A stretch of DNA of 64,000 nucleotides. Origin: Eledone cirrhosa (lineage: Eukaryota). The position numbers and the translations under genes were made by a program. The stretch spans positions 189,782,001 to 189,846,000 of the forward strand of contig OZ024740.1 of assembly GCA_964016885.1 (NCBI GenBank), given 5' to 3'. Under the pieces are notes generated by a model. That model ran no database searches and was not told the origin of the DNA. It was given only the letters and a program-made list of their open reading frames with translations. Below are positions 28,128-28,446 of this stretch, one piece after another; position 1 is the stretch's first letter; each line of letters opens with the position of its first letter.

Positions 28128-28446
28128 AAAATAAAGTTAAATAAAAGTCAAATGATTAAAATTTAGCTTCGTTTATTACTGCTATATATATTTCAGTGAC
28201 AGCCATCTTTGGGTATGACCTCTTCAGGCAGTTTGAATTATTATGGTATAGACAATTACATATGTTGTTTAGGTGTATAATATTGTCAATACTCTGATAT
28301 GCCCAGTTCCTTGTTGGGTTGTTAATTCACTGAGGAACTGGAGTCATTTTACACTACTCCGGAGTAACCAAACCAACCTGCGCACTTCGTCGAGTGCTCC
28401 AGCCTGCATACTGAGGTGTCGGTATACAACCAACATAAACTCAAAA
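28128..28446. mobile_element. ~320-bp HHR module between (TA)n tracts; family of 61098-61413, with its 220-bp segment inverted
   Basis: 28128-28347 is the reverse complement of 61098-61317, while 28347-28446 is a direct match to 61314-61413. Confidence 0.9.
28178..28232 (-). ncRNA. Hammerhead ribozyme
   Basis: Minus strand: actgc CTGAAGA ggtcataccca-aaga-tggctgtcact GAAA tatata TA gcagt. Confidence 0.8.

Follow-up and report, generated by a model that had tools for sequence, protein, structure and literature searches.

An insert at positions 28127 to 28446 of the analyzed DNA, a 64,000-nucleotide stretch of the Eledone cirrhosa genome that is referred to here as the window, has the known head-to-head layout of Penelope-like element (PLE) insertions and is not an invertible switch. 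The reading that we favor, with a probability of roughly 0.6, is that this insert, copy 1, arose when the 3′ end of a PLE entered a (TA)n tract as a short head-to-head insertion, through two target-primed reverse transcriptions, probably of the same RNA. The layout itself, with an inverted pLTR, a one-sided tail and two RT start sites, has already been published, and copy 1 is in itself ordinary. The remaining value lies in counts at the level of the family, which favor one RNA copied from two fixed sites. The formation of inverted repeats and one-sided tails in PLEs is described as an open question in the available text of PMC8557442. The family examined here is of value in this respect: it offers thousands of young copies that carry subfamily variants, a sharp 5′ end and two start sites that lie well apart, so that counts can constrain the mechanism.

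Organization of the two copies

Family positions are numbered on copy 2 (locus L001; 61098..61413, plus strand), a single-arm insert that consists of the pLTR, segment A (0–220), followed by the tail, segment B (221–315). Within this numbering 61099 is position 1, 61318 is position 220 at the A/B border, and 61413 is position 315 at the end of B. Comparison of the window with itself aligned segment A of copy 1 in inverted orientation (28127–28347 against 61318–61098; 221 bp, 96.8% identity, 7 mismatches, E 6e-104) and segment B directly (28346–28445 against 61313–61412; 100 bp, 98%). The initial annotation had described A as flipped relative to a fixed B, with the same end points of A in both copies and an essentially lossless junction, and the alignments agree with both descriptions. 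Copy 1 (locus L031) has the structure rc(0–220)+(215–315). Its first arm is the pLTR, inverted, on the minus strand from family position 220 to 0 (28127..28347), and its second is the tail, on the plus strand, with positions 215–315 (28346..28446). No bases are lost at the junction, and the six bases at 215–220 are present twice; two of them form an AT microhomology with the 5′ end of A, and this AT, at 28346–28347, is common to both arms.

Both copies lie in (TA)n. The outer end of the first arm of copy 1 blends into the tract at 28101–28128, a (TA)14 that is the left remnant of the target and also borders a neighboring PLE, and the right portion of the target tract occupies 28447..28528. The further proposal that these are two isomers of the same element does not hold, since the copies are unequal at two of the eight subfamily-diagnostic sites and therefore neither derives from the other. 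Comparison with reads indicates that segment A of copy 1 also carries at least four private substitutions. The exact 20-nt junction of copy 1 occurs twice in the genome. At the second locus the A arm matches copy 2 with 100% identity, against 97% for the A arm of copy 1, and because it is of the other subfamily, the junction likely arose twice. A separate observation is that at locus L032 (G000:C2:7213880-7217200) the window junction is followed by three tandem copies of tail B.

Hammerhead-like motif

Segment A contains a type I hammerhead-like motif, recognized by motif and fold. In copy 2 it is intact (61213..61267, plus strand), with a 5-bp stem I, a CUGAAGA core, a long stem II, GAAA and a palindromic TATATA loop; the cut is predicted to fall after 61262 (family position 164). 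The counterpart in copy 1 lies on the minus strand (28178..28232, with the core from 28227 and GAAA at 28194). Its stem II is weakened by two private substitutions, with nearly all reads differing at 28213 and 28215, and its fold energy is −7.8 kcal/mol compared with −15.7 kcal/mol for copy 2. A scan against Rfam gave no hits at the gathering threshold, and near the 5′ hot spot the hits were at chance level. Descriptor and relaxed core scans for a second ribozyme at position 0 found none, the strict descriptor having missed the main motif as well. In its type I form and short palindromic helix III the motif agrees with the metazoan PLE hammerhead as described in the accessible part of PMC4209133. 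At one locus, L122 (G000:C1:66441420-66443820), both arms stop at 165, directly after the predicted cut, which suggests that hammerhead-cleaved RNA may be able to serve as a template.

The parent element

The family is large. When the genome was searched with copy 2, the best 40 of 221 candidates were scored and all 40 were near-full matches, and the exact 17-mer at the end of A was found at 5,077 genome sites, against 93 for a control. In the 5′ direction several copies continue across a long 3′ UTR and on into sequence that codes for GIY-YIG and RT. Two loci, L065 and L066, have the order A, whole or in part, then B, some 50 nt of 5′ UTR, ATG, ORF, 3′ UTR and A. There, and at 61 exact sites, B continues into the 5′ UTR and ORF, and all 30 of the loci fetched from these 61 sites carry a 5′-truncated copy of the 3′ end directly before the 5′ UTR, as partial-tandem pLTRs. 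Together these arrangements identify A as the pLTR and B as the tail and start of the 5′ UTR. A+B is thus the 3′ end, a hammerhead-bearing pLTR and a tail, of an autonomous RT-GIY-YIG Penelope-like element; the tail is non-coding and 95 nt long (positions 221–315), and the unit at L066 measures 4,163 bp.

YRDD and YIG motifs lie upstream of A+B at L063, L065 and L066, as judged by motif in copies that are frameshifted. RWK, DKT, a CxCX5C linker, CxxC and CxH are all present in the protein of L065 and L066, and inspection of the translation places a single Cys between VYG and YIG, with the later His pair absent, so that the endonuclease is of a kind without CCHH. A Pfam search of one fragment of L066 returned no families. 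By its motifs, hammerhead and (TA)n target the family appears to be like the EN+ PLEs of the Hydra clade. In the sample the copies are scattered stubs, single or head-to-head, and not tandem repeats. At L146, L161 and L165/L166 the unit has an internal deletion that brings B and a little of the 5′ UTR back next to A; these may be mini-elements.

Outer ends and arms across the family

Orientation and break points were tabulated over a position-ordered sample, in which the first 100 of the 5,077 17-mer sites, in order along C1, gave 75 loci; the sample requires an intact A-end 17-mer and so misses tail-only stubs. Head-to-head inserts make up 43 of the 75, a further 30 have one typed outer end, and two are unclassified. 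Among the 30, 18 stop at 315 and 12 at 220, which makes 220 an independent end. Two-arm inserts pair 220 with 315 in 39 of 43 cases (binomial p 1.6e-8 against 50%), with three scored as 315/315 and one as 220/220; one of the three, L065, was so scored through mis-pairing of an internal pLTR and has true outer ends of 315 and 220, and the count is left as scored. The tabulation, which the initial annotation had recommended, shows that both end points of A are recurrent, family-wide break points and are not specific to the copies in the window.

The way in which the arms meet is more variable. In simple 220/315 pairs the arms overlap in 32 of 37 and do not overlap in five, where the tail arm begins at 219 in one and at 259–281 in four. 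A tail arm start within 213–225 occurs in just 1/37, so the precise abutment of copy 1 is a rare point on a continuum of arm starts, and there is no strong sign of a block near 220. With copy 1 as the query the same kind of junction was found at 16 of 29 other fetched loci, with tail arms from 167–289, in what is a query-biased set. Inner ends vary likewise, with a hot spot at position ~0. The 220 arm extends further toward the 5′ end in 17 of the 37 pairs and the 315 arm in six, while the two are equal in 14; a longer 220 arm is something that simple fold-back of a 315 cDNA cannot produce.

A shared 5′ end

Positions 0–19 are present at 4,211 sites, of which 1,299 run 11 nt further upstream, a drop that exact matching inflates somewhat. 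Within the sample, stops at −8 to +8 were counted in 15/37 arms ending at 220, 12/37 ending at 315, and 13/26 single arms. The hot spot and long copies alike are seen in all main sequence variants. Upstream pLTRs that are linked to an ORF and reach position 0 do not stop there (0/13, against 40/66 sample arms, p 3e-5), which disfavors an intrinsic RT stop and suggests instead a distinct short RNA whose 5′ end is fixed. The site itself, TTCATA, resembles an initiator consensus. The fixed end would likely be the transcription start of a putative promoter belonging to the pLTR, and the 3′ pLTR of D. virilis Penelope is described as containing a working promoter (PMC2377424). ORF-linked 5′ ends at ~0 numbered 0/30, though a pLTR promoter might be expected to give them.

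One template or two

For 36 loci whose two arms overlap by 100 nt or more (20 of them in the sample, the other 16 taken from ranked searches), the arms were compared with each other. They diverge by 1.1% within an insert and by 2.6% between inserts. At the eight diagnostic sites the mismatch is 2.8% within and 29.2% between inserts, a difference reached in none of 5,000 permutations; one or two diagnostic differences between arms are present in 6/36 inserts. The lengths of the arms are also coupled, since among the 18 pairs whose inner ends avoid the hot spot, 10 have these ends no more than 15 nt apart (permutation mean 1.3; 0/20,000). A single RNA with two start sites, each used once, accounts jointly for the asymmetry of the outer ends, the coupling and the shared variants, and is favored; it assumes an RT able to displace a cDNA. 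Shared variants are also expected if two RNAs came from a single master locus, or after gene conversion or fold-back, and fold-back predicts coupled inner ends equally well. Set against the expectation for L1 that both primers are on one RNA, the shared variants and coupled ends fit, as they do for fold-back and sibling RNAs.

Origin of the head-to-head insert

Taken as such a copy of one RNA, copy 1 would have formed by two target-primed events from opposite sides of a cut, with starts at the end of the tail (315) and at the pLTR/tail border (220). The 220 cDNA would have run off the fixed RNA 5′ end at ~0, the 315 cDNA would have halted about 5 nt beyond the 220 start, and the two cDNA ends may then have been joined through the 2-nt AT microhomology. 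In most copies of the family the 315 cDNA would displace the other and extend further, giving overlapping arms. There is a precedent in vitro, where a PLE protein nicks and extends both strands and two RT start sites bound the tail (PMC11167929, in the portion available). Extension of this scheme to all head-to-head inserts is more tentative, and we would place it at slightly under even odds: in each, one RNA would be copied twice, from 220 and from 315, with the downstream cDNA displacing the upstream one and both copies running to the RNA 5′ end, mostly the start of a ~320-nt transcript of pLTR and tail that would behave as an inbuilt non-autonomous element. If true, such a rule of one RNA and two sites would account at once for a tail on one side only, the inversion of the pLTR and the abutting ‘flip’.

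An alternative that we regard as unlikely begins with a 315 cDNA that reaches ~0, self-primes at the short TCATATGA palindrome and is resolved at 220, after which the long palindrome loses most of one arm to leave A(−)B(+). Self-priming has been proposed for PLE palindromes (PMC3846280, as available in part), variants are common to both arms, and the inner ends are equal in 14/37 pairs, some of them at self-complementary spots such as position 128, in hammerhead stem II. Against this, at least 17/37 pairs, those with the longer 220 arm, would require a second event, 12/30 single-ended inserts stop at 220 without a tail arm, and 13/26 end at the hot spot without folding back. An equally long palindrome near position 90 is no hot spot.

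Somewhat less probable again is the use of two separate RNA molecules, whose source would be a single master locus or a tandem transcript, each copied from its own side of the cut by a dimer of the protein, with the products then joined head to head. Overlapping arms would then need no strand displacement, the anole protein is predicted to be a dimer in the available text of PMC11167929, and the 6/36 inserts whose arms differ at one or more diagnostic sites would find an explanation. By itself, however, this leaves both the 39/43 asymmetry and the agreement of inner ends to within 15 nt at arbitrary positions (10/18) unaccounted for.

The initial annotation had offered either a twin-priming-like event during integration or a later inversion, and it is the former that fits. 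Inversion over A of an ordinary A(+)B(+) copy after its insertion, or an A that is an invertible segment, is highly improbable: copy 1 taken alone has this look and (TA)n is self-complementary, but in 32/37 simple pairs one stretch of sequence is present in both arms, an outcome that inversion cannot produce, the outer end at 220 recurs throughout the family, 215–220 is duplicated within copy 1 itself, the two window copies are of different subfamilies at different loci, and the same 20-nt junction exists at a second locus with an A arm of the other subfamily.

An assembly artefact at 28347 is given an equally small chance. Palindromes in (TA)n are hard to assemble, and among the short reads and contigs searched, no record bridges the exact 28347 junction. 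Contrary to an artefact, the same kind of junction is found at varied positions in the query-biased set of 16/29 other loci, and a second hammerhead family has the same geometry at 61434–61684. Independent raw short reads and contigs, moreover, contain joins of A(−) to B at other positions of B (8 and 17 reads at one of them) and the fold-back joint at position 0 (8 and 4 reads in the coded runs). The class of junction is thus backed by reads, and the copy 1 locus itself rests on the assembly.

Neighboring and other elements in the window

Directly across the (TA)n from copy 1 lies a 5′-truncated RT-GIY-YIG ORF of 627 aa (26216..28099, minus strand), which belongs to an unrelated and very young PLE family. 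Its RVT_1 match is weak, below the cut-off, its linker has the form CX2-5CxxC, and it comes with a hammerhead core of its own at 25958 on the minus strand. For this family (25715–28099, minus strand) 40 genome matches were scored, among them the one in the window, and every one is 100% identical over 600 bp; some copies are in tandems about 4.1 kb apart and some are head-to-head. These features make it a candidate active element. It had been pointed out that the flipped hammerhead of copy 1 lies in sense orientation just upstream of this ORF. The two are indeed on the same strand, and yet the placement is incidental, because the ORF is of another family. No A/B DNA was found within 1.5 kb of the ORF's siblings at 20 fetched loci, 18 of which continue upstream in sequence of their own, and between the two families a DNA match is absent and the best tblastn E value is 0.37. 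On these grounds we rejected a connection between that ORF and the flipped hammerhead. What the neighboring PLE and the A/B insert have in common is the (TA)n tract only; the neighbor is younger than copy 1, with its private substitutions in A, and likely entered the same tract later.

The second hammerhead family, which is unrelated to the A/B family, is present in three forms: an abutting A(−)B(+) arrangement at 61434..61684, 20 bp from copy 2, made of rc(30151–30328) and then (30335–30412) in direct orientation; a single unit at 30151–30412; and a head-to-head form with one tail at 8484–8851. Its cores lie at 30229 (+), 61530 (−), 8668 (−) and 8753 (+), and it has a tail of its own of ~85 nt.

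A decayed relative of the neighboring PLE (about 71%) lies at 55060–57043 (+), with a hammerhead core at 56853, and a related 3′ end is at 4714–5174, with a core at 5012. PLE-like fragments at 20136–20759 (+) and 22772–23278 (+) represent a GIY-YIG endonuclease end and a piece like the protein type of the A/B family. Further hammerhead-like cores of other families occur at 50761 (+), 31941 (−) and 42551–42617. The ORF fragments at 10299–14027 (+) resemble a Helitron Rep/helicase.

Comparison with known systems

A one-RNA, two-site or twin-priming model for PLE arms was not found in the literature searched, which covered few subscription papers. The A/B inserts differ from a site-specific invertible segment in that they lie at different loci and in different subfamilies, and most two-arm copies have duplicated content. 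For L1 twin priming, the internal start is variable and the inverted and direct arms abut. Compared with L1, for which the description in the available text of PMC2246262 was taken as the comparison system, the second start here is fixed at 220 and the arms overlap in 32/37 pairs; copy 1 alone would pass as such an event. The non-LTR retrozymes are described, in the accessible part of bioRxiv 10.64898/2026.07.22.740005, as tandem repeats with a hammerhead in each unit, unlike the dispersed single or head-to-head copies sampled here.

The closest correspondence is with EN+ PLEs, whose insertions, as far as they are covered in the consulted text of PMC8557442, PMC3846280 and PMC2377424, have an inverted, 5′-truncated pLTR and a tail at one end only. 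The A/B family is similar in its inverted truncated copy at the 5′ end, one-sided tail and microsatellite target, in a pLTR that carries a hammerhead and measures about 220 bp (218 bp in Pen2a_Av), and in a tail whose sequence comes from what follows the upstream pLTR. It departs from them in the length of this non-coding tail (95 nt rather than 30–40 nt, with position and origin equal), in its strong 5′ hot spot, and in the arms of copy 1, which abut instead of overlapping. Likeness to the Hydra clade, as set out in the portion available of PMC8557442, extends to RWK, DKT, the CxCX5C linker, and CxxC and CxH beside a conserved E and N, as well as to the lack of CCHH in the endonuclease, the hammerhead and (TA)n. 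The A/B unit is about 4.2 kb; members of that clade are generally <3 kb.

The system that bears most directly on start sites is PAc, the Poseidon element of Anolis, known here from part of PMC11167929. Uncleaved RNA is the main template in that work. As in the A/B family, two fixed starts bound the tail downstream of the hammerhead, the target is AT-rich, and both strands are extended. In PAc the two start sites are next to each other within the ORF, and in vitro they are used without preference for either strand; in the A/B family 95 nt separate them, and in 39 of 43 two-arm inserts each arm has a different one.
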